A stretch of 64,000 nucleotides of DNA. It comes from Sphingomonadales bacterium. GTDB lineage: Bacteria; Pseudomonadota; Alphaproteobacteria; Sphingomonadales; Sphingomonadaceae. Below the pieces are notes generated by a model. That model did no database searches. It was not told where the DNA came from and saw nothing but the letters and a program-made list of their open reading frames with translations. The stretch spans positions 202-64,201 of the forward strand of contig JANOHL010000061.1 in NCBI GenBank assembly GCA_031406495.1. The letters run 5' to 3'. Within the stretch, counting starts at the first letter, position 1; each line of letters begins with the position of its first letter. Made by a program: the position numbers and the translations under genes. Below, one piece after another: positions 2,510-57,626 of the stretch.

Positions 2510-3085
2510 CTAATCCATATGCTTCAGGCCGACGCGCAGATAGTCCCAGCCGGTCAGCATGGTCAGCGCTGCCGCGATCCACAGCAGCGCCAGCGCCGCT
2601 TGCTTGAGCAAGAGCCAGTCGGGCCATACACCCGCCAATATGATCCCACCGAGCGAAACGAGTTGAAACGTCGTCTTCCATTTGGCCAGCGCCGACACCG
2701 GCACCGAAATCTGTAACCCCGCCAAAAATTCGCGTAAGCCCGACACGATAATCTCGCGGAGCAGGATAATCAGCGCCGCGATGACATGCCAGCCATCAAC
2801 GTCACGGGTGAAAACTAGCATCAATATGACTGCGGCGACCATGATCTTGTCGGCAATCGGATCGAGAAAAATCCCGAGCCGCGATACCGCGCCTTGCGCC
2901 CGCGCAAGATAGCCGTCGAAATAATCGGTGATGCCCATCAGGCAGTAAAGGATGAAGGCAAGTGCATAATCGATCGGCAAAGGCTGCACCCCGCCCGGCT
3001 TGGCGCTGGGCCAAAGCAGAAAGACAAGGATCGGCACAGCAAAGATGCGCGACAGCGTCAGGATATTGGGCAGGCTCAGCATCAT
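2510..3085 (-). CDS. pgsA: CDP-diacylglycerol--glycerol-3-phosphate 3-phosphatidyltransferase
   Basis: LPNILT and TDYFDGYLAR...G..LDPIADK CDP-alcohol phosphotransferase motif; usual pgsA-moaD-moaE order. Confidence 0.93.
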   Translation of the reverse strand: MMLSLPNILTLSRIFAVPILVFLLWPSAKPGGVQPLPIDYALAFILYCLMGITDYFDGYLARAQGAVSRLGIFLDPIADKIMVAAVILMLVFTRDVDGWHVIAALIILLREIIVSGLREFLAGLQISVPVSALAKWKTTFQLVSLGGIILAGVWPDWLLLKQAALALLWIAAALTMLTGWDYLRVGLKHMD

Positions 3086-9937: not shown

Positions 9938-10001
9938 TGACGCTACGGCCTGTAGCAGGCGGACCTTAGATAAAACAACCGCTTTGGCTGCAGTTGAAAC
10001 C

Positions 10002-10083
10002 ATTTGTTGCAGCTTGATTGGAAGCGAATAACCGGTTCCCATCCCCGCCTTCGCGAGGACAGGCTTTATTCGCATCAAGCTGC
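10002..10083 (-). terminator. Hairpin downstream of tRNA-Leu with a REP-like palindrome in its loop
   Basis: GCAGCTTGAT..GCGAATAA / TTATTCGC-ATCAAGCTGC inverted repeat enclosing CATCCCCGCCTTCGCGAGGACA. Confidence 0.5.
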
Positions 10084-10087
10084 TATA

Positions 10088-10172
10088 TGGTGCCCCAGGC
10101 CGGACTCGAACCGGCACTCCTCTCGGAACAGGATTTTGAGTCCAGCGCGTCTACCAATTCCACCACTGGGGC
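10088..10172 (-). tRNA. tRNA-Leu (anticodon CAA)
   Basis: Reverse complement GCCCCAGTGGTGGAATTGGTAGACGCGCTGGACTCAAAATCC...GGTTCGAGTCCGGCCTGGGGCACCA: 85 nt, long variable arm, T-loop GTTCGA, encoded CCA. Confidence 0.97.
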
Positions 10173-41034: not shown

Positions 41035-42087
41035 ATGTCCCTGTTAGAAGCCCGCAACTCTTATAAGCCCTTTGAATATCCTTGGGCCTATGACTTCTGG
41101 AAACGCCAGCAGCAGATCCACTGGTTGCCCGAAGAAGTGCCTTTGGGTGAGGATTGCCGCGACTGGGCGCAGAAGCTTTCGGACAATGAACGCAATTTGC
41201 TGACGCAGATTTTCCGCTTCTTCACGCAGGCCGATATCGAGGTGCAGAATTGCTACCACGAACAATATGGCCGGGTGTTCAAACCGACCGAGATCAAGAT
41301 GATGCTGACCGCGTTCTCCAACATGGAAACCGTCCACATCGCCGCGTACTCGCACCTTCTCGACACCATCGGCATGCCAGAAAGCGAATATTCGGCCTTC
41401 CTCGAATATGAAGAAATGGCCGCGAAGTGCAATTACATGCACCAGTTCGGCGTCGACACCGACGAAGACATCGCGCGCACGCTCGCGATGTTCGGCGGCT
41501 TTACCGAAGGGCTGCAACTGTTCGCGTCGTTCGCGATGCTGATGAACTTCCCGCGCTTCAACAAGATGAAGGGCATGGGGCAGATCGTCCGCTGGTCGTT
41601 CCGCGACGAAAGCCTGCACTGCGAAGGCATCACCAAGATGTTCCACGCCTTTTGTGCCGAACGCAACTGCCTGACCAAATCGGTCAAGGAAGACATCATC
41701 GATTGCTGCCAGAAAGTCGTTCGGCTGGAGGACAACTTCATCGACCTCGCGTTCGAAATGGGCCCCGTGCCCGGCATGACCGCAAAGGAAATCAAACGCT
41801 ATATCCGCTACATCGCCGACTGGCGTTTGGGGCAGCTTGGTTTGCCGCAAGTCTACATGGTAGATGACCACCCGCTGCCTTGGCTGGCGCCTTTGCTGAA
41901 CGGCGTAGAGCACGCCAACTTCTTCGAAACCCGCGCGACCGAATACGCCAAGGCAGCAACGCGCGGCAACTGGAGCGAAGTGTGGGACAGCTTCGACGGG
42001 CGGAAGAAGAAGATCATCGGCATTGAGGCCGCGGCGGAAAATGACGGCGTGGATATGTTCGAACAGGCAGGGGTTGCGGCGGAGTAA
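41035..42087 (+). CDS. nrdB: Class I ribonucleotide reductase beta subunit
   Basis: FFTQAD, ETVH...Y (radical Tyr), EGLQLF, RDESLH and NFFE. Confidence 0.95.
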   Translation: MSLLEARNSYKPFEYPWAYDFWKRQQQIHWLPEEVPLGEDCRDWAQKLSDNERNLLTQIFRFFTQADIEVQNCYHEQYGRVFKPTEIKMMLTAFSNMETVHIAAYSHLLDTIGMPESEYSAFLEYEEMAAKCNYMHQFGVDTDEDIARTLAMFGGFTEGLQLFASFAMLMNFPRFNKMKGMGQIVRWSFRDESLHCEGITKMFHAFCAERNCLTKSVKEDIIDCCQKVVRLEDNFIDLAFEMGPVPGMTAKEIKRYIRYIADWRLGQLGLPQVYMVDDHPLPWLAPLLNGVEHANFFETRATEYAKAATRGNWSEVWDSFDGRKKKIIGIEAAAENDGVDMFEQAGVAAE

Positions 42088-42109
42088 TTGATCGAAAAGG
42101 AAACGTATT

Positions 42110-42628
42110 ATGTCAATGTTTTCGAACTATCAAAGTATCTTCCAATTAGTTGCCGGAATTTCAATTGGTTTTTCGGGTATAATATCGCTTTTTGATGATC
42201 CGTTATCCAAAGAATCTCAAAAGCTAGCTGCGCTAAGTAAAAGAACCCGAGCGATTTCAAACAGATATCCATCCATTGGAAATGTAGAAAAAGATCAGAT
42301 TCAGTCTCTGTCAAACGACATTGACAATTATTTGGACAATATAATACGTGAATCCAATGACCAAGTTAAGTTTCCGATACTTAAGATGCTTGCTTTTGGT
42401 GCTTCGATAGCCGGATTCGTGCTTTTGATATATGCAAGCGAAATACCACAAGCAAAAATGTCTTCTGGATTGAAGTTTGCCTCTTATGTGCTATTGGCGT
42501 GTGTGCCAGCAATGACCATTTATGTCGCTCATTGGTATCGTTCGATATCTAGGTCATATGCCGCAAACCGGAAGACGCTGGACAATCGCTACATTGCTAT
42601 AGTAGACCAAATATCTTTACAGATTTGA
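42110..42628 (+). CDS. AT-rich hypothetical membrane protein
   Basis: 172-aa ORF with an RBS, three hydrophobic segments and atypical AT-rich codons. Confidence 0.65.
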   Translation: MSMFSNYQSIFQLVAGISIGFSGIISLFDDPLSKESQKLAALSKRTRAISNRYPSIGNVEKDQIQSLSNDIDNYLDNIIRESNDQVKFPILKMLAFGASIAGFVLLIYASEIPQAKMSSGLKFASYVLLACVPAMTIYVAHWYRSISRSYAANRKTLDNRYIAIVDQISLQI

Positions 42629-42659
42629 TAAAGTCCAAGGAAATTCAGGGGCATCCTTC

Positions 42660-42902
42660 ATGAAAATAAAAGGTTGGCGAGGAGGAGTTCCGGAAGAGAA
42701 CTCCCGGCTAGGGCAGTTATACAATTTGATCAAAGGTGCCCAAGACTATGCAAAGATGCATACGTCCCTTGAACAGCATAACTTTTATATCCGGCCGAAG
42801 GGCCAAGGACAGCTGTGGATTCTAGTAAGCCCAGCTATCGAACTCCGATGCCATTGCGATAGCATCACGTTGACTGTTATCGAACAACGGAAGCCATTCT
42901 AG
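42660..42902 (+). CDS. Possible small hypothetical protein or gene remnant
   Basis: 80-aa AT-rich ORF with no recognisable motif. Confidence 0.25.
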   Translation: MKIKGWRGGVPEENSRLGQLYNLIKGAQDYAKMHTSLEQHNFYIRPKGQGQLWILVSPAIELRCHCDSITLTVIEQRKPF

Positions 42903-42957
42903 AGTTTTGCGAACTTCTCTTTCGATATCATGTAAAGTTAGCTGGTCGCAGGCAAGG

Positions 42958-43095
42958 GAGTTTCGGGAGGAGTTTCGGGGGAGGAGTTTCGGGGACAGGG
43001 AGGAGTTTCGGGGACACGAGTTTCGGGGACACAATACTAATTAGCCGCTAGCTCCAGGAGTTTCGGGGACACAATACTAATTGGCCGCTAGCTCC
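42958..43095. repeat. Staircase tandem array of GAGTTTCGGGGACACAATACTAATT-derived units
   Basis: Six copies starting at 42958, 42970, 42984, 43003, 43018 and 43058; matched lengths 10, 11, 14, 15, 38 and 38 nt. Confidence 0.9.
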
Positions 43096-43112
43096 TCAAA
43101 ATTGAGATAGAA

Positions 43113-43308
43113 TTGGCCCGCCAAAGGCGGGCAAGGCGCAAAGGAAATAAGGCACAAAGACGGCGGTCCACCCACAGCTGTCACCCTGAACTTGTTTCAG
43201 GGTCTTACTATTCAACGTCTAAAAGTAAGATGCTGAAACGAATTCAGCATGACGTGCAAGAGCTAAATTTTGCGCCTTTGCGCCTTGCTCGCCACAGGCG
43301 AGCGCCCT
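43113..43308. repeat. Nested REP doublets: GCAAGGCGCAAAGG pair enclosing a GTCACCCTGAACTTGTTTCAG pair
   Basis: Outer GGCGGGCAAGGCGCAAAGG / CCTTTGCGCCTTGCTCGCC inverted arms; inner arms 43180-43204 and 43229-43254. Confidence 0.8.
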
Positions 43309-43351
43309 CAATTCAACCTCCCCTTAACCACCTCCATGCCATTCTCCACAA

Positions 43352-43606
43352 ATGGCCCGCGCCTCGTTCCTGAAAACCGCTGCTCCCTTGGTCGTCCTGA
43401 CCTTCCTCGGCGTCTATAACTTGCCCGCAATCACGCAGGAAGAAGTGGCGGCGCGGGATGCGGTCGAACAGTCCATCCACTATAGCGGCTGCAACGAAGT
43501 CCGCGCCGCTGGCAAGGCTCCGCTCTATCGCGGCGATCCCGGCTACGGCGAACATATGGACGGCGATGGCGACGGTGTCGCCTGCGAACCTTATTACGGA
43601 AACTGA
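43352..43606 (+). CDS. Excalibur calcium-binding domain protein
   Basis: YSGCNEVRAAGKAPLYRGDPGY..HMDGDGDGVACE. Confidence 0.88.
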   Translation: MARASFLKTAAPLVVLTFLGVYNLPAITQEEVAARDAVEQSIHYSGCNEVRAAGKAPLYRGDPGYGEHMDGDGDGVACEPYYGN

Positions 43607-44066
43607 GAATTCCCGGAACCGCTCACGGGTTGTTGAACAATATCGATCCAATAACGGCAGTTTCTCGTGGCCAATCTGCGAGCGTCCCTTAGCTGTTCTT
43701 TAGCCTCGGCCAAAGTGTACGTGTCAGACTCGCTGCACAATGTGCCAACGGCTATCATTTTCCCATTGCAATGTAGGATTTGATTTGAGACCGTCATCCG
43801 GTCGGTTCGCAAGGGTCGGCGCTGCTCTTTGAAATTGTCTTTGAAACCGCCCTCATGCTGGCTACGCGCCGGTTCGCCAGAACCTGCAGGGCAGATCCGT
43901 CCCCTGACTGCGCCGAAACCGTTCAGGTGAGACTTTAGTGTGACCTTCCGGCTCGCTCGCCGTTTGCGCGCATCGCTCCCTTCGACACGCTCAGGATAGC
44001 TTTGACCACTTAGCGGCTCATCCGGGAGCGCAATTCAGTGTGAACTTGGGCTGATTTGAGCGGGTT

Positions 44067-45497: not shown

Positions 45498-46202
45498 TCA
45501 TTGCGGCCAGACGAAGCGAAGCGCGGTCTCGCCGGTGCAGACGCCGTCCGCATCGAAGCGTCGCTCGATGATCTGCCCCTGCCCCTCGGTATCGACCGCA
45601 ACAACGGTGCTGCACCGCGTCCCATAGACCGGACTGCGGATGAAGACGGGGTGGGCGTCACGGTCGGGCTTATCTTCGTCGCGGAGCAAGTCCAATAACA
45701 GCTCGAGGCGTTCTGGTGCCTGCGCCATCCATGATTGCATCTGCTCGATCAGCCGATCTTTGCGTGGCCAATGCTCATCAGGGATCGCGTTCGACAGACC
45801 ATGAATTCCAGGCGTCAGCGCTTCCTGCTTGGGCTGGGGGCGGTTCGACGCGAACCATGCGGATTGCCTTTCGGTGACAATCAAGTTGAACGGATTGAAG
45901 TCCAGCACATTGCCGGGTTGCTGGCCTGCTATCAGCCAGTCGGTGACCAGCGCGCCGCGCGATGTCTTGTCGGGATCGGGGCCGTCGGCATCGCGGATGT
46001 TGGTGACCACTCCAAAACGTCCATCGTCGGACACGCCCATCCATGTTCCGCCCGAAACCAGATCGCGGCCTGCGATAATTCCGGCGTCATCCTCCCACCG
46101 CGCCAACGGCGCAGAAGCACGCGCGTGAAACTCGTCGCGATTGCCTGCAACGATCAGCCGCCATTCGGGATGCGCCTCCCAAGCTATTGCAACAACGCAC
46201 AT
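45498..46202 (-). CDS. NRDE/TANGO2 family protein
   Basis: MCVV...GNRDEF, GRDLVSGGTWMG and YGTRCSTVV. Confidence 0.92.
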   Translation of the reverse strand: MCVVAIAWEAHPEWRLIVAGNRDEFHARASAPLARWEDDAGIIAGRDLVSGGTWMGVSDDGRFGVVTNIRDADGPDPDKTSRGALVTDWLIAGQQPGNVLDFNPFNLIVTERQSAWFASNRPQPKQEALTPGIHGLSNAIPDEHWPRKDRLIEQMQSWMAQAPERLELLLDLLRDEDKPDRDAHPVFIRSPVYGTRCSTVVAVDTEGQGQIIERRFDADGVCTGETALRFVWPQ

Positions 46203-46252
46203 AAAAAGCGTTATTGCGTATCCCGCAAGCTATTGCGAGTGCAAAAGCGCGT

Positions 46253-46753
46253 TTATTCGACGCCAGTATATTGCGCCTCGCCGCGACGTGCGTTGCCGTG
46301 CTCGTCCAGATCGCCGGGCTCCATTCCGCCGTCGCCGAGCATCTCGGCCTCGTCGTCGTCATTGCGCTCGCCGCGGTAGGCATCCATGTCGATCCGTCCG
46401 CTGCGTTCCATCTGCTCCATATGATCGACAACATCCTGCTCGTCATCGGGGGTGATCTGGGCGGGATTGGTGGTCCCGCCATGCTCGCTGTCTTCGTTCT
46501 GGATCTGGTCGGCAGCATAACCGCGCACCGCATCGTCGGCGACCGTCTGCGCCTGCGCGCTTTCGTCTTCCTGCTCGCGGTTGTCAGTCGGCGCATCGGG
46601 GATCGCAGGCGAGGGAGTGGGTGCCGCCGGAGTTTCGGCAGGCGCATTCGGTTCGACCTCGGTACCCGGCTGAACCGGCGCGGTTTCGTTGAACTCGTCG
46701 GGCCTTCCGTCATCGGCCACGCCGGATATGTCGGAGATAATCATTTCGGGCAT
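46253..46753 (-). CDS. Acidic, probably disordered hypothetical protein
   Basis: D/E/P-rich; start moved to MPEMII after an AAGGA RBS and downstream of the EcfG-type promoter. Confidence 0.75.
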   Translation of the reverse strand: MPEMIISDISGVADDGRPDEFNETAPVQPGTEVEPNAPAETPAAPTPSPAIPDAPTDNREQEDESAQAQTVADDAVRGYAADQIQNEDSEHGGTTNPAQITPDDEQDVVDHMEQMERSGRIDMDAYRGERNDDDEAEMLGDGGMEPGDLDEHGNARRGEAQYTGVE

Positions 46754-46865: not shown

Positions 46866-48017
46866 TTAGAGCCGCTTTTCGTAAATCCGGTAGATCTTGT
46901 TAATCTCGCCGTTGATCGCCTCGCCGACCGAGCGCATCGGGCCGTTATCTTCCAGCACCCAGCCGAATTCGCCGCGCTTGGTACCAAATTTGGCGACCGC
47001 GTCGCGACGGATATGCTCGACCAGCATGAAGGCCAGCTGGCTCGCTATCCGCGTCGATTGCAGCTTTTTGACAACTCCCATCAGCGGAACCCGCATCGTC
47101 CGGACTTTCGGCGCGCGCAGCCACCACAACAGCTTTACCCAATTGAACGGAAACAGCGAACCGCCGAACTCCACAATCTTCTCGTTGAGGTCGGGCAGGG
47201 TCATCATGAACGCCACCGGCTCTCCATCCACTTCGGCTATGCGAATCAGGTCTTCATAGACGATCGGCTTCAGGGTTTTACCGGCATAGGCAACCTCGGC
47301 ATCGGTGAACGGAATGAAACCCCAATTATCGCTCCACGCATCGTTCAGAATAGAGAGGATGAGCGCGGCTTCGGCGTCGAATTTGCTCTTGTCGACGCGG
47401 CGGATGACTATCCTTTCGTTGCGCTCTCCCGACGCAATAATACGTTCGACCAATGGCGGGAATGAGTCTTCGATCGGGATCGCGTAGGTGAACAAATCCT
47501 TGACCCCCGAATAGCCGCTAGCCTCGATCCATGATTGATATTCAGGACGATCATGCCCCATCAAAACCGTCGGCGGATGATCGAAGCCCTGCACCAGCAA
47601 ACCGGGTTCATCCCAAATCGACAGGCTCAACGGCCCGAGCGAGCGCGATATGTTTTTGCCCCGTAACCATGTTTCGGCTGCGGCAAACAAAAAGGTGGCA
47701 ACCGCGGCATCCTCCGCCTCGAACAGTCCCCAATTGCCGACGCCCGGCCCCATGCCCTGTTCGGGCGGTTGGACGAGCGCAAGATGGTCGATATGCGCAG
47801 ATATCCGGCCAACGACCTGACCGCCGCGTTCGGCCAGAAACAGCTGCGCCTCGCCATGTTCGAACCAGGGATTTTTGCCCGGCGTGATAAGCGAATTGAC
47901 GTCGTTCCTGAGCGGCGGCACCCAGTTCGGATCGTTCGCATAAAGCCGGTATGGCAGGTCGATAAACGCTGTTTTGTCGGCCTTCGTGCGGACGGCGCGG
48001 ATGATGATATCGGTCAT
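46866..48017 (-). CDS. Double-GNAT N-acyltransferase, bacterial ceramide synthase (bCerS/YghO-like)
   Basis: FIDLPYRLY..DPNWVPPL, GRISA, GPLSLSIWDEPG and WSDNWGF motifs; location in the Spt locus. Confidence 0.8.
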   Translation of the reverse strand: MTDIIIRAVRTKADKTAFIDLPYRLYANDPNWVPPLRNDVNSLITPGKNPWFEHGEAQLFLAERGGQVVGRISAHIDHLALVQPPEQGMGPGVGNWGLFEAEDAAVATFLFAAAETWLRGKNISRSLGPLSLSIWDEPGLLVQGFDHPPTVLMGHDRPEYQSWIEASGYSGVKDLFTYAIPIEDSFPPLVERIIASGERNERIVIRRVDKSKFDAEAALILSILNDAWSDNWGFIPFTDAEVAYAGKTLKPIVYEDLIRIAEVDGEPVAFMMTLPDLNEKIVEFGGSLFPFNWVKLLWWLRAPKVRTMRVPLMGVVKKLQSTRIASQLAFMLVEHIRRDAVAKFGTKRGEFGWVLEDNGPMRSVGEAINGEINKIYRIYEKRL

Positions 48018-48055: not shown

Positions 48056-49597
48056 TCAGAGCTTTAACCTGCGGCCCATTTTGCCAAGCGCCGCCTTGTC
48101 GTCCTGCTCTAGTCCCAATTTCAATCCAGCCCAAAGCAGCGGCCAGAACAGGGCGAACAACCCGACAGCGCGGATGGGTGCACCGAGTGGTGCAAGCGCT
48201 ATGCCTGCCAACCAAAGCAGCCCGATGGTCGCTGCACCGAGCCCAACCGCACGCCAAAAGCCGGAGCCAAACGGAGACAGACCATCACTGACCTTAAGTT
48301 CGACCACAGCGGCCCACGCCGTCACCACTACCGCCACAGATACCGCCAGCGCCATTCCTAACGCACCGTAAGCAGGCACCAGCCAAAGCGCGAGCAGCAG
48401 CCACAGTGTCAGACCGATCATGCTGTTCAACAGCGGCAGCGCGCGGTGGCCAACCATCTCGACAATCGGCGTTGCAGGACCGATGACTGCCTCACCCGCG
48501 CGCGCGGCCAGCAATATGACAAGCACCGGCAGAGCCGCAGCCGACCCCGGCGCGAAAGCGCTCAACATGTCCGATGCGATGAGGATCATGAAGCCAGCCA
48601 GCGGCACGGCGAGCAACAACGACATATGCGTCGAGAAGCGGTACATCGGCAGCATCGCGCCTCGATCGACCGCCGACTGCGCCGACGCCAGCGGGGAAAG
48701 GACGTAGAGGAACGATTGCCGCACGATCAGCGGGATCGAGGCAATCTTGCGCGCGATACCGAACAAGGCGGCGGCTGTCGCCCCTGCGGCGCCGGGTATC
48801 ATCAGGTTCAGCAGGATCGGTGGCAAGTCATTATAGGCCCGTCTGGCAATCGCTGGAGGCATCATCGCGGCACCGCTAGCCAACACCGCGCTGCGCGTCA
48901 GGCGCGGCATCGGCGCGCGCCACAGCAGCCCCAAATCATAATAACGCCCAAGCAACTGCGCCGATAATATCGCGGTCAGCGCCAGCGACAGCATATGGCC
49001 CAAAAGCAACCCCATAAGGTCAAATCCGATAAGGAAAAATCCGGTGGCAAAAACCAGCCGTGCGACTTGCTCCCAGAATATCCGCAGGCGGATTTCGGGA
49101 CCAAAAGCACGCTTCGCCCGCGCCGCCGCTGTCGCAATTTCGACAAATATCCATAAAGGCAGGCTCCACGCGAATATGGCAATCGCCTGCGGCAGTCGCG
49201 CAGCTTCTTTGGGCGCCGATGCGACGAAGCTGGCAAGCCAATCGGCAGACAATGTCATTGCCAGTGCTGCGAGCACCCCGAGGCCGGTGCCGGTGAGCAA
49301 GGCAAAACGCACCGCTCCGTGCTGCCGCACACGGTCATCTTCGGCAGGAACGATCCGCTGCAACGCCTGCCCCATGGCAAGGTCTAGGATGTTCGCCAAT
49401 ATGTTGATTGCAGCCCATAACACGACATAAACGCCGTATCCGGTCAGCCCGAACATCCAGGTATATGCCGGCTGCGCGACCACTTCGATAAGCGCACCGA
49501 GCCGCGACAATGCGGCCAACCCCGCGCCTTTCGCTACCTCCGATGTGCTGACCGCAGGTGCCGGCGGCACCAGTGCGTCTTCGATCGGCCCGCTCAT
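48056..49597 (-). CDS. MOP-superfamily (MurJ/Wzx-like) flippase
   Basis: About 12-14 TM segments; G..GYGVY..LWA N-terminal pattern of polysaccharide/lipid exporters. Confidence 0.78.
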   Translation of the reverse strand: MSGPIEDALVPPAPAVSTSEVAKGAGLAALSRLGALIEVVAQPAYTWMFGLTGYGVYVVLWAAINILANILDLAMGQALQRIVPAEDDRVRQHGAVRFALLTGTGLGVLAALAMTLSADWLASFVASAPKEAARLPQAIAIFAWSLPLWIFVEIATAAARAKRAFGPEIRLRIFWEQVARLVFATGFFLIGFDLMGLLLGHMLSLALTAILSAQLLGRYYDLGLLWRAPMPRLTRSAVLASGAAMMPPAIARRAYNDLPPILLNLMIPGAAGATAAALFGIARKIASIPLIVRQSFLYVLSPLASAQSAVDRGAMLPMYRFSTHMSLLLAVPLAGFMILIASDMLSAFAPGSAAALPVLVILLAARAGEAVIGPATPIVEMVGHRALPLLNSMIGLTLWLLLALWLVPAYGALGMALAVSVAVVVTAWAAVVELKVSDGLSPFGSGFWRAVGLGAATIGLLWLAGIALAPLGAPIRAVGLFALFWPLLWAGLKLGLEQDDKAALGKMGRRLKL

Positions 49598-49607
49598 TCC
49601 CCGCCGC

Positions 49608-50696
49608 TCATTCTTCTGTGCGAACCAGCACCGTCTCGCCGATCAGCAGAAACAACAGGAACGGCCCCCATGCCGCAATCCACGGCGGATAGGCACCCAG
49701 ATTACCCATTGCGAGTGCGAAATTATCCGCGACAAAATAGGTGAAACCCAACGCCATGCCGATGACCGCACGCAAGAACAACGCCCCGGACCGTGCCAGT
49801 CCGAACGCGGCCACCGCGGCCAGCAATGGCATCAGCAATGTCGATAATGGCCCCGACAATTTATGCCACAATGATGCTTCCAGACTATCGGTCCGCCTGC
49901 CCGCCGCCTTTAGATCGCCGATCGCATTCATCAACGGTATGAACGCGAAGCTATCGCCGTCGACCTTGACATAGTTGAACCGGTCGGGGGTAATCCCTTT
50001 GCCGATGGTTAGCCCGTCAAAGCGTTTCTGCTCGGTGGTCGCAACGTCGAAAGTTGTGCTGTCTTTCAACTGCCATGCGCCGTTGATGTAGCTTGCTTCC
50101 TTGGCCTTGACGACTTGCCGCAGCCCGCCGTTGGTGCGCAGGTAGATACTGACATCGCTTAACTTTGTTGCGTCGCCCATGCCGGTCACGGTTCCGGCGT
50201 TGATCAAATCCCCTCCTTCACGCACCCAGACATTGGTTTTGATGCCGTTATCGGGAGGTACCGGGCCATATTCGACCTCCTGCCAAACTTTTAGTCTGGC
50301 GGTCGCTGGTGCCACCACCAGATCGTTGAAGACAAACGAAAACGCCGCGACGGCAAGACTGGCGACGAACATCGGTGCCAATATCTGATGCGCCGAAAGC
50401 CCCGCCGCCTTCATCGCGACCACCTCGCTATTCTGGCTTAGCGCGGCGAACGTAATCAGCGTACCGAGCAGAACAGAAAAAGGCATGAACCGGGCGATCA
50501 GTTGCGGCGCGCGCATCCCGACATAGCGCAGCACGTCGCCCTGGTCGTTACCCGCCACCGACAAAATCTTTCCGCTTTCACCAAGCAAATCGAGCGTCTG
50601 CAAGATCAGCACCAGCATCGCCAGCACCGCAAGACTGCGGATGATGAACAGCCGTGCCATATACCAGGTGATGTTACGTGAAGGGAAAAAGTGCAC
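49608..50696 (-). CDS. lptG: LptG-like permease
   Basis: SQNSEVVAMKAAGLSAHQI and KLSGPLS motifs; 3+3 TM architecture with a periplasmic jellyroll. Confidence 0.88.
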   Translation of the reverse strand: MHFFPSRNITWYMARLFIIRSLAVLAMLVLILQTLDLLGESGKILSVAGNDQGDVLRYVGMRAPQLIARFMPFSVLLGTLITFAALSQNSEVVAMKAAGLSAHQILAPMFVASLAVAAFSFVFNDLVVAPATARLKVWQEVEYGPVPPDNGIKTNVWVREGGDLINAGTVTGMGDATKLSDVSIYLRTNGGLRQVVKAKEASYINGAWQLKDSTTFDVATTEQKRFDGLTIGKGITPDRFNYVKVDGDSFAFIPLMNAIGDLKAAGRRTDSLEASLWHKLSGPLSTLLMPLLAAVAAFGLARSGALFLRAVIGMALGFTYFVADNFALAMGNLGAYPPWIAAWGPFLLFLLIGETVLVRTEE

Positions 50697-50699
50697 CGC

Positions 50700-51938
50700 T
50701 TACGCCTCCGCTTCCGCTTCCGCGAGACCGATCGTACCCAGCCGCGACTTGCGGCCAAAGCGGAACAGCTTGCGTATCGACTTGCCTGCCTTGTCGGCGA
50801 ATATCTCGAGCGCTCCGATTGGTTGTCCCCCCGGCACATGCGCGATCACATGATACATCCAAAGGATCAGGCCGGCAAAGAACAGGAACGGCAGCCATAG
50901 CGCAATGACCGGTTCGATAACCCCCATGCCACCGATGCCGGCCGCATATTCGTTGATCTTGTGATAGGTCACCACCATCACGATCGACAGGAACACACCC
51001 AGCGCCGATGTCGATCTTTTGGGCGGAATCGCCAGGGCGATTGCCAAAAACGGCAACAAAAGCATCATCGCCACTTCGACCATGCGGAAATGGAAATTGG
51101 CCTGCGCCATATTTCGCGCTTGGCTGTCCGCCGTGGCATCGCCGCCGATGCGGATAAGTTCGGTTAAAGAATATTCCCGGTCCTTCCCCCCCCGCGCCCG
51201 GAAATTTTCGATCTGCGGCAACGGGATCGGCACGTCATGGCTGGTAAAGCTCAGCACACGCGGCGTCTTGTAGTTGGGCGCATCGTGCACCAGCGTGCCC
51301 TTGCTCAGCCGCAATATTATCGTGTCGGGGTCATCGGTTCGTAAAAATTGCCCGCGTTCCGCAGTCACCGCAATCGACTGCCCGCTCTTGCTTTCCGCGA
51401 AGACGAAAAGCCCCGACAGCGCATTGCCCTTGTCGCGGCTCTCCTCGATCCGCATCGTCAGATTTTTGCCCACATTGTTGAACTCGCCAACCTTGACCTT
51501 AGCCCCGAAAGCACCCGACCGCAGTTCGAAGCGCAGCTCTTCATACAGGTAACGCGCGCTGGGCTGGATGAAGCCGACAATGGCAAAGTTGACAATGGCG
51601 AGGCCGATAGCGAACATGAAAGGCACGCGAAGCAGCCGGAAATAGCTCATGCCGACGGCACGAAAAATGTCGAGTTCCGAAGAGGTTGCGAGTCGCCGGA
51701 ACGCCAACAATATACCCAATAGCAAGCCGATAGGGATGCCGAGCGAAAGATATTCGGGAATCAAATTTGCCAGCATCCTCCACACCACGCTGACCGGTCC
51801 GCCCTCTGCTGCGACAAAGTCGAACAGATTGAGCATTTTCTCCAGCAGCAACAATGAAGCGGCAATCGCCAGCGTCGCCAACAGTGGCAACATAACAAGC
51901 CGGAAGATGTAGCGGTCCGTGGCAGTGATAAATTTCAA
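50700..51938 (-). CDS. lptF: LptF-like permease
   Basis: DRYIFR, RLATSSELDIFRAVGMS and GEFN motifs. Confidence 0.88.
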   Translation of the reverse strand: MKFITATDRYIFRLVMLPLLATLAIAASLLLLEKMLNLFDFVAAEGGPVSVVWRMLANLIPEYLSLGIPIGLLLGILLAFRRLATSSELDIFRAVGMSYFRLLRVPFMFAIGLAIVNFAIVGFIQPSARYLYEELRFELRSGAFGAKVKVGEFNNVGKNLTMRIEESRDKGNALSGLFVFAESKSGQSIAVTAERGQFLRTDDPDTIILRLSKGTLVHDAPNYKTPRVLSFTSHDVPIPLPQIENFRARGGKDREYSLTELIRIGGDATADSQARNMAQANFHFRMVEVAMMLLLPFLAIALAIPPKRSTSALGVFLSIVMVVTYHKINEYAAGIGGMGVIEPVIALWLPFLFFAGLILWMYHVIAHVPGGQPIGALEIFADKAGKSIRKLFRFGRKSRLGTIGLAEAEAEA

Positions 51939-52063: not shown

Positions 52064-52540
52064 ATGAGTAAACTACCTTTGTTTGTGGCCGTCGCCGCTG
52101 TTGCGCTCGTTTCGGGCGCTGCTGCTGCGGGTACTGCAATCAACAACGACTTGAGCCGCTGTAGCGCCGGTAATGGGCCAGCCGTGTTGGTCAGCGTGCA
52201 CGGCGTGAAGGAAGCGGCGGGCCGCATTCGCGTGCAGTCTTATCCTGCAACCAGTGGCGCGTGGCTGGCAAAGGGCCGGTGGATCAACCGCGTCGAAAGC
52301 CGTGCCAATGCCGGCACGATGAACTTTTGTGTGCCCGTTCCTGCGGCCGGTAAATATGGCATCGCCGTCCGGCATGATCGCAATGCCAACGGCAAAACCG
52401 ACATCAGCAAAGATGGCGGCGGGTTTTCGAACAATCCAAGCATCAATATCCTCAACCTTGGCAAACCCTCGGTCGGCAAGGTTGCGTTTTACGCAGGCAC
52501 CGGTGTGACGAAGATCACGATCAACCTGAAATATATGTGA
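52064..52540 (+). CDS. DUF2141 family secreted protein
   Basis: Signal peptide; GKYGIAVRHDRNANGKTD...GFSNNP motif. Confidence 0.82.
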   Translation: MSKLPLFVAVAAVALVSGAAAAGTAINNDLSRCSAGNGPAVLVSVHGVKEAAGRIRVQSYPATSGAWLAKGRWINRVESRANAGTMNFCVPVPAAGKYGIAVRHDRNANGKTDISKDGGGFSNNPSINILNLGKPSVGKVAFYAGTGVTKITINLKYM

Positions 52541-52550
52541 CGGACAACAT

Positions 52551-53522
52551 TTGGCATTAGTCGCGCTCCTTTCGAACCCCAATTCAACCGGCAACAGGTC
52601 GCTGTTGCCGGCGGTTCGATGCTACTGCGCCAAGAACCCCGACATCTTTCATTATGAAGTCGAGGAAATGGGCCAGATTGCGAAAGCGCTGGAGATGATC
52701 GCGCGGGTCAAGCCCAAGGTATTGGTTATCAACGGCGGCGACGGTACGGTCCAATCGGCGCTGACCGAGCTTTACCATGGCGGCCATTTTGAAGGCACGC
52801 CACCGCCGGTGGCCGTGTTGCCCAATGGAAAAACCAACCTGATCGCGCTCGATCTGGGTGCCGAGGGTAGCGCGCTTGAGGCGCTTGAGCGGATTGTCGA
52901 AGTCGCGAAGGGCGACCTATCCGAACATATTGTCGTGCGCGAACTGATTGCGCTGAGCGATGGTAGTGAGGGTGCGCGACCGGTGCTGGGAATGTTCCTG
53001 GGTGGCGCGGGTCTCGCCGAAACCATCCTGTACTGCCGCCACAAAATCTACCCGCTCGGCTTGCCCAATGGCTTGAGCCATTTCCTTGCGGCAATGGCGG
53101 TCATGTTTTCCGCTATTTTCGGGCTGAAGGCCGATTTTCTGCCCGCGCGCGCAAAACCGGTGAGCATATCGTTCATCCGCAAAGGCGAGTTGCAGGGCAT
53201 TTTCTCCGTGCTGATCGTTACCACGTTAGAAAAGCTGCTGCTTGGCGGACGTACGACGGAGATGAAAAAGCGCGGCCAAATGAAGTTCATGGCCGTCGAC
53301 CAACGCCCTTGGGCGATGATCCGCGTGATATTCGAATCGATAATCGGTCGTCTTGGCCGCCATGCGGTCGAGGGTATTCACATCGAGCAAGGCGATACCA
53401 TTCGCATCGACAGCGTTAAAAGCAGCGTCGTTCTGGATGGTGAGGTGTTCGAGGCGAACAGCCGCGCGCCAATCGTGCTACGCTCGACCGCGCCGGTGCC
53501 GTTCCTGCGGCTTGCGGCTTAA
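52551..53522 (+). CDS. Diacylglycerol-kinase-family lipid kinase (ceramide kinase CpgB-like)
   Basis: LSNPNS, INGGDGTV, LPNGKTNLIA and VLDGE motifs. Confidence 0.85.
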   Translation: MALVALLSNPNSTGNRSLLPAVRCYCAKNPDIFHYEVEEMGQIAKALEMIARVKPKVLVINGGDGTVQSALTELYHGGHFEGTPPPVAVLPNGKTNLIALDLGAEGSALEALERIVEVAKGDLSEHIVVRELIALSDGSEGARPVLGMFLGGAGLAETILYCRHKIYPLGLPNGLSHFLAAMAVMFSAIFGLKADFLPARAKPVSISFIRKGELQGIFSVLIVTTLEKLLLGGRTTEMKKRGQMKFMAVDQRPWAMIRVIFESIIGRLGRHAVEGIHIEQGDTIRIDSVKSSVVLDGEVFEANSRAPIVLRSTAPVPFLRLAA

Positions 53523-53562
53523 TCGCTTAACAACCACGCTCGAAAAACGCTAAGGGCTGCGC

Positions 53563-54486
53563 ATGCTCTCGCTCACCCAATTGGTAGCCGATGAATTGGC
53601 CGTGCCTGCCTTGCCGCAGGTTCAGGACTTTGCCGCGCGTATCGCGGGGCAGTATCCGGGCGCGGCAAGGGCGGTTCTGTTTTACGGGTCTTGCCTAAGG
53701 TCGGAGCAACTTGAAGGCCAGATGCTCGATTTCTACCTAATCGTATCCGACTATGACGCCGCCTATGACAAGAAATGGCTGGCAAAATGGAACCGGCGGC
53801 TGCCGCCCAATGTCTTTCCCTTCCAACATGAGGGCCTGATGGCCAAGGTCGCGGTGTTGAGCGAAGAGGATTTCCATGATCTCAACCGCCCCGCCGCGTC
53901 GGCAGTGTCGGTCTGGGCGCGCTTTGCCCAGCCTGCGCGGCTGGTCTGGGCGGCGGACGAGGCGGCGCGGCACATGGCGGCGCGCGCGATATCGGGTGCG
54001 GCACCGACATTGCTCAATGCCGCCTTGGCCTTTGTCGAACGTGAGGTCGATGTCCTCGATCTGTGGCAATCGGGTTTCCGGATGACCTACGACGCCGAAC
54101 TGCGTGCCGAGCGCAACGACCGGCCTGCATCGGTGATCGAGTTCGACCCCGAGCGTTACGAGACTTTCGGCCGCGCCGCGCTCCACCACACGATGATCGC
54201 AAACGAACTCCGGGCTGACAAAATCCATATCCTCCCCGACCCCGAAGGCCGGATCATGCAGGAACGGGGCCGCTGGCCCGCCTTAAGGCGTCGCGGCAAG
54301 ATGCTGACCGTGGCGAGGCTGGCGAAGGCGGCCTTCACCTATGCAGGCGGCATCGATTACCTCGCCTGGAAGGTAAACCGCCACGCCGGAACGCAGATCG
54401 CAATCAAGCCGTGGCAGCGGAAATGGCCGTTGGTGGCTGCGCTGTTTCTCGTGCCGAAGTTGCTGGTGAAGGGCGCCGTCAGATAA
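53563..54486 (+). CDS. Pol-beta-fold nucleotidyltransferase, Tam41-like (CpgA-like, tentative)
   Basis: VLFYGSCLR...MLDFYLIV resembles the Tam41 YGSG...DFI motif; directly after the kinase. Confidence 0.6.
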   Translation: MLSLTQLVADELAVPALPQVQDFAARIAGQYPGAARAVLFYGSCLRSEQLEGQMLDFYLIVSDYDAAYDKKWLAKWNRRLPPNVFPFQHEGLMAKVAVLSEEDFHDLNRPAASAVSVWARFAQPARLVWAADEAARHMAARAISGAAPTLLNAALAFVEREVDVLDLWQSGFRMTYDAELRAERNDRPASVIEFDPERYETFGRAALHHTMIANELRADKIHILPDPEGRIMQERGRWPALRRRGKMLTVARLAKAAFTYAGGIDYLAWKVNRHAGTQIAIKPWQRKWPLVAALFLVPKLLVKGAVR

Positions 54487-55678
54487 TCCCCACAGCCTTA
54501 CCCGCACGTTCAAACCGGCTAAGAATATCCGACACCTGCTCACTCGTATGCTCGGCACAAAGCGAGCAGCGCAGCAGCGTCATGCCAGCCGGGGTCGCCG
54601 GTGGCCGCGCCAGGTTCACGTAGAGCCCGTTCTCCAACAGCGCCTGCCACATCGCGGCCCCGCGTTCGAGGTCGGGCATGATGACCGCGATGATCGCGCT
54701 TTGCGCTTCGGGGGTGCCCAGCTGAAAGCCCAAATCGCGCAGGCCCTTGTGCAGCGTCTTTGAATTTTCCCACAGATGCGCGCGCTTGTTGCCGCCGTGC
54801 ATCAATTTGCGGATGCTGGTCGCCGAACAGGCGACAACGGCAGGTGGCAGGCTCGCGGTGAACACATAGGGGCGGCACACCAGCCGCATGATTTCGAACT
54901 TCGGATGGTTCGAAACGCAAAATCCGCCGACCGTACCGACCGACTTAGAAAACGTGCCGATGACGAAATCGACGTCGTCCAGAACGCCCTGCTCCTCGGC
55001 CACGCCGCGTCCGTTTTCACCGATAAAGCCCATCGAGTGCGCCTCGTCGACCAGCACCATCGCGCCCGCTTCTTTCGAAACACGGACCATTTCTTTGAGC
55101 GGCGCAACGTCGCCCATCATCGAATACACGCCCTCCAGCACCACCAATTTGCCCGCATCGGCAGGCAAACGCTTCAAACGTTTCTCCAGCGCCTCGACAT
55201 CATTGTGACGGAACGCAACAATCTCGGCATCGCCCATTTTGCAGCCGTCATAGATCGACGCATGGCTGTCGATATCGAGGATGACATAATCGCCCTTGCC
55301 CGCAATCGTGCTGATAATCCCCAGATTGGCCTGATAGCCGGTGGAGAATACCATCGCGTGTTTCATGTCGTAGAATTCTTTGAGCGCTTCTTCGCACTCT
55401 TTGTGGCCTTGAAATGTGCCGTTCAGAACGCGGCTGCCGGTGGTGCCAGCGCCAAATTCGTCGAGCGCCTTTTTGCCCGCTTCGATGACATCCTCATCGA
55501 AGGTCATGCCCATATAATTGTACGTGCCGAGCAGGATCGTTTCCTTGCCGTTGCAGACCGCGACGGTAGGCGAAAGCACTTGCTCCATCACCAGCGAAAA
55601 CGGGTCCATCACGCCAGTCGAGAGCAAGCCTTCGCGTTGCGCAATCAGCGGGTCGAATTTGGAAAACAGGTCTGTCAT
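54479..55678 (-). CDS. spt: Serine palmitoyltransferase
   Basis: LLGTYNYMG, GTTGSRVLNG, DEAHSMG and GTFSKSVGTVGG (PLP lysine); adjacent to an ACP. Confidence 0.93.
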   Translation of the reverse strand: MTDLFSKFDPLIAQREGLLSTGVMDPFSLVMEQVLSPTVAVCNGKETILLGTYNYMGMTFDEDVIEAGKKALDEFGAGTTGSRVLNGTFQGHKECEEALKEFYDMKHAMVFSTGYQANLGIISTIAGKGDYVILDIDSHASIYDGCKMGDAEIVAFRHNDVEALEKRLKRLPADAGKLVVLEGVYSMMGDVAPLKEMVRVSKEAGAMVLVDEAHSMGFIGENGRGVAEEQGVLDDVDFVIGTFSKSVGTVGGFCVSNHPKFEIMRLVCRPYVFTASLPPAVVACSATSIRKLMHGGNKRAHLWENSKTLHKGLRDLGFQLGTPEAQSAIIAVIMPDLERGAAMWQALLENGLYVNLARPPATPAGMTLLRCSLCAEHTSEQVSDILSRFERAGKAVGII

Positions 55679-55780: not shown

Positions 55781-56023
55781 TTAATCCGTCAGCTTCATCA
55801 CAGCATCGACCAGCTGGCCGACATTTTCGATCTCGGCCTGCAGGTTCATCGTAATCACGATGTCGAACGCATCTTCAACCTCGGCAACGAAATCCATAAC
55901 GGTCAGGCTGTCCCATTCGAGGTCACCGGCAAACGTCGTCGCGTCGGCGATGGTCACGCCCTTTTTGTTGAACGGTTCGATCAAGCCCTTCAACCCCTCA
56001 AACATCTCGCTGCGGTCGGTCAT
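55781..56023 (-). CDS. Dedicated acyl carrier protein
   Basis: DLEWDSLTVM (phosphopantetheine Ser); 80 aa, acidic; upstream of spt. Confidence 0.92.
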   Translation of the reverse strand: MTDRSEMFEGLKGLIEPFNKKGVTIADATTFAGDLEWDSLTVMDFVAEVEDAFDIVITMNLQAEIENVGQLVDAVMKLTD

Positions 56024-56198: not shown

Positions 56199-56714
56199 AT
56201 GAGCGACGGGAAAAAATGGCCGGGCGAAGCCATATATATGGTCCGCACCATGCAGCAGCATCATGTGCAGCTAAGCATCATGGCCGATCAAAAGGCCAAT
56301 ATGCTGATCGGCGCGACCTTTGTCGTTTTGACACTCGCCATCGGGCAAAGCCAAAGCAGCAGCTTTTCGCTTCCCTTGGTCATATTGGCGGTGTCGGCAT
56401 TTATGTCCGCTGGCCTGGCCACAATGGCGGTGATGCCATCGACCGTGCCAAAACCTTCGAGGGGCAGCAACTGGCTATTCTTCGGCACATTTGCCCAGGT
56501 TGAAGAATCGGTATTTCATGAAAAAATAATGGGGAACCTTGGCGAACCGGAAGATGTCTTCAAGGCGATGTTGCATGATATCTATCAAATGGGCTGCATC
56601 CTCCAGACCAAAAAATACCGTTATCTGGGCTGGGCCTATCGCGCCTTTTTGGTTGGTTTGGTCACGACTTTTGTGACGTTCGTCTATGAACGATTTGCCG
56701 GACCGATATTATAG
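56199..56714 (+). CDS. Pycsar-effector-family (DUF5706/PycTM-like) membrane protein
   Basis: QLSIMADQKANMLI, two N-terminal TMs ending in MP, LFFG and KKYRYL..AY..F before a third TM; start MSDGKK after a GGAGAGG RBS. Confidence 0.75.
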   Translation: MSDGKKWPGEAIYMVRTMQQHHVQLSIMADQKANMLIGATFVVLTLAIGQSQSSSFSLPLVILAVSAFMSAGLATMAVMPSTVPKPSRGSNWLFFGTFAQVEESVFHEKIMGNLGEPEDVFKAMLHDIYQMGCILQTKKYRYLGWAYRAFLVGLVTTFVTFVYERFAGPIL

Positions 56715-57626
56715 CCACCCTTGTGATTTGTACCAGCGCGCGGTTTCCTTGAGGCCAGCGCGTGTTTCCACCTGCGGCGTCCAAAGCGCGGCGGGGGGTG
56801 CGGCTGTCTGGTCGATGGTCCAATCTGGGTGGCTGAGATAGCTGGCGCGGTCGGGCGTCAACTTGGCCTTTCGCTTGCGGAAAAGCCGGTCGCCATGTGC
56901 CGCGAGTTTGAGCAAGAAACGCGGTGCGTGGATGGTCGTCACGCGCCGCCCCAAGGCCCAGCCGATGGCACGGGCGAAACCGTCATGGCTCCAACCGTTT
57001 GGCGTGCCATCGTCCGCCTCGAATATCCGCGCGGTGGCATCGTCATGGGCTGGCAGCAGCGCCACCAGTAGCCGCGCCAGATCATCAACGTAAATCCATG
57101 ATCCACGCCCACGCGGCGGCAGCAACGCGAAGCCCTTTGCCGCCATCCGGAACATGTCAAACACATCATGATCGCCGGGGCCATAGACGCCGGGCGGACG
57201 AATGATGGTCCAGTCGAGCATCGAGGTGCCGACCAGCTTCTCGCCGCGCTTTTTGCTCGCACCGTACATCGACAATTCGGGGTGCTTGGCCGCGAGCGAT
57301 GAGACATGGACGAAGCGTATGATGCCTGCGTCTTTAGCGGCTGTGAGCATCTTTGCAGTGCCGGCCACATTACCTGCTTCAAAACCCGCCGCGTCAGGCA
57401 CGTTGACCACGCCCGCAACATGCAACACCGCGTTTGCACCGTCGCAGAGTGTCGCAAGGCTCGCCGCATCGTCCAGGCTACCGTGCACCCACGTGACACC
57501 AGCGCGCTTCGGCTGGTCCCGCCGGGTCAAAGCCCGCACTTGCCATCCGGCCTCTAGCAGCCGGTCGAGCGTCATCTTGCCGACAAAACCGGTCGCGCCG
57601 GTCAGCGCTACGACCTTACCCGTCAA
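56709..57626 (-). CDS. NAD(P)-dependent extended SDR, CerR-like (ceramide reductase)
   Basis: TGATGFVG, HVSSLAA, YGASK and RPPGVYGPGD; TTG start; location in the Spt locus. Confidence 0.8.
   Translation of the reverse strand: MTGKVVALTGATGFVGKMTLDRLLEAGWQVRALTRRDQPKRAGVTWVHGSLDDAASLATLCDGANAVLHVAGVVNVPDAAGFEAGNVAGTAKMLTAAKDAGIIRFVHVSSLAAKHPELSMYGASKKRGEKLVGTSMLDWTIIRPPGVYGPGDHDVFDMFRMAAKGFALLPPRGRGSWIYVDDLARLLVALLPAHDDATARIFEADDGTPNGWSHDGFARAIGWALGRRVTTIHAPRFLLKLAAHGDRLFRKRKAKLTPDRASYLSHPDWTIDQTAAPPAALWTPQVETRAGLKETARWYKSQGWL

Follow-up and report, generated by a model that had tools for sequence, protein, structure and literature searches.

Two adjacent genes at positions 52,551–54,486 of the DNA stretch analysed here (64,000 nucleotides of contig JANOHL010000061.1 from a Sphingomonadales bacterium, as a whole referred to as the window) encode a predicted lipid kinase (open reading frame (ORF) A) and a protein modelled with the fold of the cytidylyltransferase Tam41 (ORF B). 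The pair represents the known cpgB-cpgC module, and both proteins are very probably orthologues of CpgB and CpgC from Caulobacter crescentus with the same pathway role. The explanation favoured here, at a probability of about 0.7, is that they carry out the initial two steps of headgroup assembly in a pathway to an anionic phosphosphingolipid, including formation of cytidine diphosphate (CDP)-ceramide; for the CDP-ceramide step taken by itself, the chances appear about even.

Both the pairing and the idea of an activated ceramide have already been published. Zik et al. (2022) recognized CpgC homologues in Sphingomonadales and modelled CpgC as adding glycerate to ceramide phosphate (PMC9393093). 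Olea-Ozuna et al. (2024) assigned a Tam41 domain (IPR015222) to CC_1161, proposed a nucleoside diphosphate (NDP)-ceramide intermediate together with an unknown condensing enzyme, and listed orthologues in S. wittichii (Swit_3903/3902, beside spt) and Zymomonas (PMC11324152). An earlier note on this stretch had correctly described a kinase of the DAGK fold followed by a protein with the motifs FYGS and DFYLIV, but regarded the route as new; as a genome finding, it is the re-discovery of a described system, the note having independently re-derived a published hypothesis.

Orthology with CpgB and CpgC of Caulobacter crescentus

In C. crescentus, cpgB (CC_1160), cpgC (CC_1161) and spt (CC_1162) are neighbours. 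A genome scan with a reduced family alignment retrieved Sphingomonadales only; a contig of the Caulobacter type (L081) was found among metagenome contigs via the published cc_1160 reverse primer. Two published C. crescentus primer sites are present on this contig, its cpgC ORF of 882 bp has the published length of cc_1161, and its gene order, i.e., cpgA (CDP-OH_P_transf), cpgB, cpgC, spt, Metallophos, lptF2/G2, cerS and two NTP transferases, is the published one. The contig is classed as Caulobacter-type by these primer sites and this order, and is not identical to strain CB15.

Compared with the CpgC protein of this contig (293 aa), ORF B shares 37 % identity (E 3e-48; residues 1–303 versus 1–284), and ORF A shares 28 % identity with its CpgB over nearly the full length (E 1e-19; residues 1–304), being the sole match of the latter query in the window. 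Invariant motifs common to ORF A and CpgB of the Caulobacter type are NP-S-GN, GGDGT, VLP-GKTN and DGE-F. Identities of 39 and 25 % to CC_1161 and CC_1160 were published for Swit_3902 and Swit_3903, respectively, the orthologues of S. wittichii (PMC11324152); judged by sequence comparison, the window proteins reach practically equal values. The assignment as orthologues follows from these full-length matches together with the same cluster order.

Conservation of the gene pair in Sphingomonadales

The locus was compared with 80 related loci from genomes chosen as one per species, labelled either as Sphingomonadales or with broad or probably mis-binned names. Most of them have retained the order cerS-lptG-lptF-DUF2141-cpgB-cpgC-spt-acpR-cerR. 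In 62 of the 80 loci, the gene for the kinase adjoins the ORF B homologue, and in 77, the distance between spt and cpgC is no more than 10 kb; hence, the pairing of kinase and ORF B is not due to chance. In 16 loci with sufficient upstream flank, mostly from Sphingobium but also from Allosphingosinicella and Sphingosinicella, cpgC is still accompanied by spt, but a kinase gene could not be found in the 10 kb upstream of it (threshold E 1e-5).

Loci of the Sphingobium type (L047, 9035–14158; L051, L052, L054, L063, L065 and others) combine cpgC with spt and acpR, contain genes for the glycine cleavage P-protein upstream, and have a hybrid histidine kinase gene inserted between cpgC and spt. An apparent CpgB-CpgC fusion in Sphingobium (611-aa ORF in L047) was dismissed as an over-extended ORF downstream of gcvP.

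The kinase (ORF A)

Residues 5–117 of ORF A match Pfam DAGK_cat (E 1e-13), and the GGDG motif for ATP binding is invariant in 29 kinase sequences including the Caulobacter type. A profile of the kinase family searched against the PDB matches YegS, DgkB and acylglycerol kinase, and the YegS-type models of NCBIfam score 14–25 bits with ORF A versus cut-offs of 118–505. Start and length of the protein (322–326 aa) are conserved in 57 of 59 recovered orthologues, and a hydrophobic segment spans residues 174–197. GGDG is common to CpgB and human CERK, and absence of the CxxxCxxC motif is the criterion for a bacterial ceramide kinase (PMC10331486); this motif of eukaryotic CERK is absent from ORF A (pattern search C...C..C). 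Purified CpgB was proven in vitro to be a ceramide kinase which phosphorylates diacylglycerol about equally well, and deletion of cpgB in Caulobacter left the level of phosphatidic acid unchanged (PMC10331486). From its domain, motifs and orthology, which suffice to establish the DAGK fold, ORF A is classed as a CpgB-type lipid kinase and predicted to phosphorylate ceramide.

The Tam41-like protein (ORF B)

Searches of Pfam and NCBIfam with ORF B gave no match at E ≤ 0.01. The protein belongs to a family of 1145 clusters at 50 % identity, in which weak matches to Pfam Tam41_Mmp37 occur in 17 of 112 representatives (best E 3.3e-6). Searches of the PDB with the single sequences of ORF B and the divergent relative P0168 yielded nothing useful; the sole match of the family profile in the PDB, the minimal nucleotidyltransferase 9xbd_E (marginal E 0.21), was rejected as unrelated.

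An AlphaFold2 model of ORF B was built from an alignment of the 112 family representatives (mean predicted local distance difference test score 96.3, predicted template modelling score 0.92). Its comparison with the PDB by Foldseek placed Tam41 chains at the top five ranks (E 1.6e-9 to 9e-9, template modelling (TM) score 0.49–0.60, 277–298 aligned columns, 12–13 % identity), namely the Firmicutes enzyme with CTP-Mg (7ECD; cytidine triphosphate, CTP) and the enzyme of S. pombe (6IG2/6IG4), so that the Foldseek check suggested in the earlier note came out as it had anticipated. The next family comprises aminoglycoside nucleotidyltransferases, i.e., ANT(4'), at a TM score of ~0.31. Judged by the model, ORF B adopts the fold of Tam41 and would represent a distant sister family rather than a Pfam-level member, since it stays below the threshold of PF09139.

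The nucleotidyltransferase signature maps to the strand-helix-strand element of residues 35–61 in the model. Y41, G42 and D56 are unchanged in all of the 112 representatives, and at least 90 % of these retain S43 and Y58; D56 is the single Asp of the nucleotidyltransferase site, with Y58 taking the place of the second carboxylate. Further conserved residues are R46, P81, P82, N83, K95, R120, Q123 and R181, the basic ones (R46, K95, R120 and R181) being invariant. In Tam41 itself, only one of the three carboxylates of nucleotidyltransferases is left and CTP is bound by basic residues (PMC11646218), a description to which the GS motif, the single D56 and the basic residues of ORF B would correspond. 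The last helix of ORF B (residues 288–306, WPLVAALFLVPKLLVKGAV) is hydrophobic, which, by analogy, is consistent with peripheral membrane binding in the manner of Tam41. The C-terminal 80 residues are unusually conserved (W238, R252, K255, D265, Y266, W269, K270, R273 and H274).

Proposed pathway

The genes for Spt, AcpR, bCerS and CerR, which would supply the ceramide, belong to the same cluster as the pair. In the first headgroup step, the kinase would form ceramide-1-phosphate with adenosine triphosphate, as shown for the Caulobacter orthologue. In the second step, the Tam41-like protein, which its hydrophobic C-terminal helix would anchor to the membrane, may convert ceramide-1-phosphate and CTP to CDP-ceramide and pyrophosphate in the same way as Tam41 acts on phosphatidic acid; this assignment is suggested by the fold and by mutant lipid profiles, deletion of cpgC in Caulobacter leading to accumulation of ceramide-1-phosphate and loss of ceramide phosphoglycerate (CPG) and CPG2 (PMC9393093; PMC11324152). 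A phosphotransferase from outside the locus may then exchange cytidine monophosphate (CMP) for glycerate or a phosphorylated three-carbon alcohol, yielding CPG or ceramide phosphoglycerol. In analogy to the work with Caulobacter, the lipid would finally be flipped and passed to the adjacent LptF/LptG-type extractor for transfer to the outer membrane; a role of LptF2/G2 in sphingolipid export was reported in a preprint (10.64898/2026.04.12.717747).

Acceptor transferase and alternative explanations

The earlier note was also right in that the locus contains no CDP-alcohol phosphotransferase and that pgsA is far off. A six-frame scan of the window for the motif DG-x2-AR-x(n)-G-x3-D-x3-D or the PF01066 domain revealed pgsA only, which adjoins moaE outside the sphingolipid locus and may be considered a candidate for a promiscuous acceptor enzyme. 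Homologues of cpgA, CC_1158, CC_1157, CC_1153 and cpgD were not detected in the 64-kb window (tblastn with Caulobacter-type queries), nor do cpgA-like or these other genes occur within 10 kb in the 80 related loci.

The note had derived a possibly undescribed product from this lack, but the latter is not unusual in view of Caulobacter and S. wittichii. In a Caulobacter CC_1159/1160 double mutant, CC_1160 alone restored CPG formation (PMC11324152), implying that CpgA is needed for the second phosphoglycerate only; CpgD provides the CDP-glycerate for this second step (PMC12275187). Furthermore, the cpgA/cpgD genes of S. wittichii form a separate locus (Swit_1306-1309), and Zymomonas is without cpgA (PMC11324152). 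As the first headgroup can be attached without CpgA, and as this enzyme is encoded at a distance in S. wittichii, absence of a local acceptor transferase is to be expected and, by analogy with these organisms, not anomalous. Likewise, the product need not be an undescribed phosphosphingolipid, as the note had supposed; rather, CPG or the ceramide phosphoglycerol of a Zymomonas mutant is to be expected.

Several points weigh against the route via CDP-ceramide. At the level of sequence, ORF B does not match Pfam Tam41_Mmp37 (PF09139) even at E ≤ 10, one family member inspected individually scores 17.9 bits versus the cut-off of 24, and the 112-sequence family profile retrieves no Tam41 chain from the PDB. 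In the literature searched, there is no enzyme assay for any CpgC and no demonstration of CPG or another phosphosphingolipid in Sphingorhabdus or any wild-type sphingomonad, and the mechanism of CpgC was called unidentified as of May 2026 (PMC13228409). Of the sequence proposed in the earlier note, the conversion of ceramide via ceramide-1-phosphate to a Tam41-like step agrees with the genetics of Caulobacter CpgB and CpgC (PMC9393093, PMC10331486), while CDP-ceramide itself is not mentioned in the literature searched.

In a tentative variant of the favoured explanation, the product in Sphingomonadales would be ceramide phosphoglycerol, with PgsA using CDP-ceramide instead of CDP-diacylglycerol, followed by a phosphatase step. 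This would account for the lack of a dedicated acceptor gene at the locus, and pgsA is indeed the only gene of its kind in the window. According to a report cited in the supplement of PMC11324152, a Zymomonas mobilis mutant without ceramide glucuronosyltransferase accumulates ceramide phosphoglycerol, and Zymomonas possesses cpgB and cpgC in addition to lacking cpgA. However, Caulobacter forms the glycerate derivative with the same two enzymes, S. wittichii carries the full cpgA/cpgD set elsewhere, and no evidence for the use of a ceramide-based donor by PgsA was found.

That CpgC attaches a glycerate- or phosphoglycerate-derived group directly to ceramide-1-phosphate, or catalyzes other chemistry (e.g., as a LicD/fukutin-type phosphotransferase), appears unlikely, even though phosphotransferases using CDP-alcohols also occur within the nucleotidyltransferase fold and the structural alignments relate the CpgC family to Tam41 only remotely. 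Direct addition of glycerate to ceramide phosphate was the proposal of Zik et al., and genetic screens of the Caulobacter cluster have yielded no separate acceptor transferase; yet the energetics disfavour forming the ester directly from a phosphomonoester and an alcohol (Olea-Ozuna et al., PMC11324152), and the structures closest to ORF B are all CTP:phosphatidate cytidylyltransferases. Moreover, cpgD mutants, which are devoid of CDP-glycerate, still make CPG, from which it follows that CDP-glycerate is not the donor for CPG.

One may further speculate, at rather long odds, that CpgC is self-contained, activating ceramide-1-phosphate with CTP and transferring it to the headgroup alcohol by means of its conserved C-terminal 80 residues. 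Such an enzyme would be a new type of lipid headgroup synthase, and with it, it would be understandable that Caulobacter genetics and synteny in Sphingomonadales have both failed to disclose an acceptor transferase.

Finally, glycerolipid salvage via a diacylglycerol kinase forming phosphatidic acid and a bacterial Tam41 forming CDP-diacylglycerol would agree with the acceptance of diacylglycerol by CpgB in vitro and with the Firmicutes Tam41 (7ecd) being a genuine CDP-diacylglycerol synthase, but is highly improbable. It is largely refuted by Caulobacter genetics, since phosphatidic acid is unaffected by cpgB deletion and cpgC deletion specifically abolishes CPG with ceramide-1-phosphate retained; moreover, cpgC is found near spt in nearly all loci, among genes for the synthesis and export of ceramide.

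Gene cluster and further features of the window

The cpgB-cpgC pair is embedded in a complete cluster for ceramide synthesis and export (Table 1), beyond which, past cerR, proB and obg are located. The start of cpgC follows the end of cpgB after 40 nt, and the convergent spt overlaps the end of cpgC by 8 nt. On the other side, the gene for a DUF2141 protein ends 10 nt ahead of the cpgB start and is present upstream of cpgB in 59 of the 80 loci; an operon with cpgB-cpgC probably starts with it, and lptF is transcribed divergently from this unit. The ORF listed for bCerS extends to 48257 and overlaps the flippase gene by ~200 nt, leaving its true start uncertain. Since bCerS matches no entry in Pfam and NCBIfam, these profile libraries have an annotation gap for this enzyme. 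The flippase gene was detected at the equivalent place in just 15 of the 80 loci.

Table 1 Features of the window discussed in the text (positions and strand refer to the window)
Feature	Position	Strand	Description
pgsA	2510..3085	-	Sole CDP-alcohol phosphotransferase of the window (six-frame motif scan); Pfam CDP-OH_P_transf, E 1.7e-30
cerS (bCerS, CC_1154 orthologue)	46866..48011	-	43 % identity over 382 residues (E 4e-96) to Caulobacter-type CC_1154 (L081)
Putative flippase	48056..49597	-	Polysacc_synt (MOP-type), CC_1166-like by family; Pfam Polysacc_synt, E 8.1e-7, barely over cut-off
lptG-type permease gene (LptG2 equivalent)	49608..50696	-	NCBIfam LptG, 306 bits; position conserved in 80-locus survey
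lptF-type permease gene (LptF2 equivalent)	50700..51938	-	NCBIfam LptF, 235 bits; tblastn match to Caulobacter-type LptF2
DUF2141 protein	52064..52540	+	Signal peptide, N-terminus hydrophobic; Pfam DUF2141, E 1.2e-20
cpgB orthologue (ORF A)	52551..53522	+	Predicted lipid kinase of DAGK fold, 323 aa, TTG start
GGDG ATP-binding motif of the kinase	52734..52745	+	Residues 62–65 of ORF A
cpgC orthologue (ORF B)	53563..54486	+	Predicted Tam41-like protein of nucleotidyltransferase fold, 307 aa, ATG start
Nucleotidyltransferase signature FYGS-x12-DFYLIV	53680..53745	+	FYGS, residues 40–43, and DFYLIV, residues 56–61, of ORF B
spt, serine palmitoyltransferase	54479..55678	-	NCBIfam SerpalmtaseAlphaP, 797 bits (cut-off 670); 55 % identity to Caulobacter-type Spt
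acpR, dedicated acyl carrier protein	55781..56023	-	Pfam PP-binding, E 2.9e-8; flanked by spt and cerR, like its counterparts in Caulobacter and S. wittichii
cerR-like NAD-dependent reductase gene	56709..57626	-	Pfam Epimerase and NAD_binding_10; conserved position; Caulobacter-type contig L081 ends before cerR

Promoter and terminator sites predicted between 51800 and 56200 were no commoner than in shuffled sequence, and scans for tRNA genes and Rfam families found nothing within or close to the locus. The window has a G+C content of ~58 % and encodes proteins resembling those of Sphingorhabdus and other Sphingomonadales. In a search of sequencing runs, the near-complete stretch (0.99 of the sampled words) was recovered from one run only, a freshwater sediment metagenome; RNA evidence for the locus was not found, the sequence being present in metagenomic DNA runs only.

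Between acpR and cerR, a gene at 56199–56714 (+) encodes a membrane protein of 171 aa which matches PycTM (Pycsar effector, PF18967; E 9e-23) and lacks an adjacent cyclase. It is found at the same spot in ~25 more distant Sphingomonadales loci and is absent from the closest relatives (L001–L021); a longer ORF starting at 55860 and covering this gene is an artefact running antisense to acpR. Next to cerS are a TANGO2-family gene and an overlapping ORF of 208 aa (46087–46713 (-) and 45498–46202 (-)), the latter without family match; the position of TANGO2 is kept in 10 close relatives. Just past the ribonucleotide reductase genes, the region 42000–44000 has a lower G+C content (0.50 versus ~0.58) and contains ORFs without Pfam match at 42110–42628 (G+C at third codon positions 0.36) and 43313–43651; it may represent recently acquired DNA. 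The only tRNA gene of the window, tRNA-Leu (CAA) at 10088–10172 (-) according to ARAGORN, overlaps the listed start of a serine dehydratase ORF (8582–10117), which therefore probably begins farther downstream.

Sphingolipids in place of lipopolysaccharide

Sphingomonads use sphingolipids in place of lipopolysaccharide, and Caulobacter survives without lipid A only when making anionic lipids whose synthesis starts with CpgB and CpgC. The module is conserved and tightly linked to spt and to an exporter of the LptFG type in the freshwater Sphingorhabdus-type lineage of the window and in most Sphingomonadales loci retrieved, which supports the published prediction that the outer membrane of sphingomonads contains phosphosphingolipids besides glycosphingolipids. 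Should CpgC indeed form CDP-ceramide, an equivalent of CDP-diacylglycerol would for the first time be known among sphingolipids.

Comparison with known systems

ORF A resembles Caulobacter CpgB (CCNA_01218 / CC_1160) in combining DAGK_cat with GGDG, in its place directly upstream of cpgC and near spt, in the internal hydrophobic segment and in the lack of CxxxCxxC. It differs in that sequence identity is low and that the N-terminus is shorter than that of the annotated Caulobacter protein. The gene upstream differs as well, being that for the DUF2141 protein in the window versus cpgA in Caulobacter, and the Caulobacter-type cluster is without DUF2141 counterpart. ORF B shares with Caulobacter CpgC (CCNA_01219 / CC_1161) most of the family-invariant residues checked (YGS, R46, D56, Y58, K95, R120, Q123 and R181), the C-terminal set of W, R, K and H residues found in the Caulobacter-type protein, and the gene position between cpgB and the convergent spt, whereas its PPN motif (P81, N83) reads WPD in Caulobacter-type CpgC. 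A published layout of this kind is that of S. wittichii (Sphingomonas/Rhizorhabdus), where, compared by published description, Swit_3897-3908 displays the same arrangement of cerR, acpR, spt, cpgC, cpgB, lptF, lptG and cerS, and where the Swit_3903/Swit_3902 locus, as in the window, has cpgA and cpgD located elsewhere.

With Tam41/TAMM41 (PF09139), the CTP:phosphatidate cytidylyltransferase of mitochondria and Firmicutes, ORF B shares, judged by the model, the two-domain fold (nucleotidyltransferase and winged helix). By analogy, GS and the single Asp would correspond at the nucleotidyltransferase site, and both would have a hydrophobic or amphipathic C-terminus suited to peripheral membrane binding and a lipid phosphomonoester as likely acceptor. 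In contrast to Tam41, the genomic context of ORF B points to ceramide-1-phosphate instead of phosphatidic acid, and conservation of its C-terminal 80 residues goes far beyond the needs of a mere anchor. The proposed route corresponds to phosphatidylglycerol synthesis by CdsA-PgsA in that activation with CTP would precede displacement of CMP by an alcohol, the lipid being activated as in CDP-diacylglycerol. The TagD-TagF and CpgD-CpgA systems likewise combine activation by CTP with displacement of CMP, but in these it is the headgroup which is activated, whereas in the route proposed here it would be the lipid.

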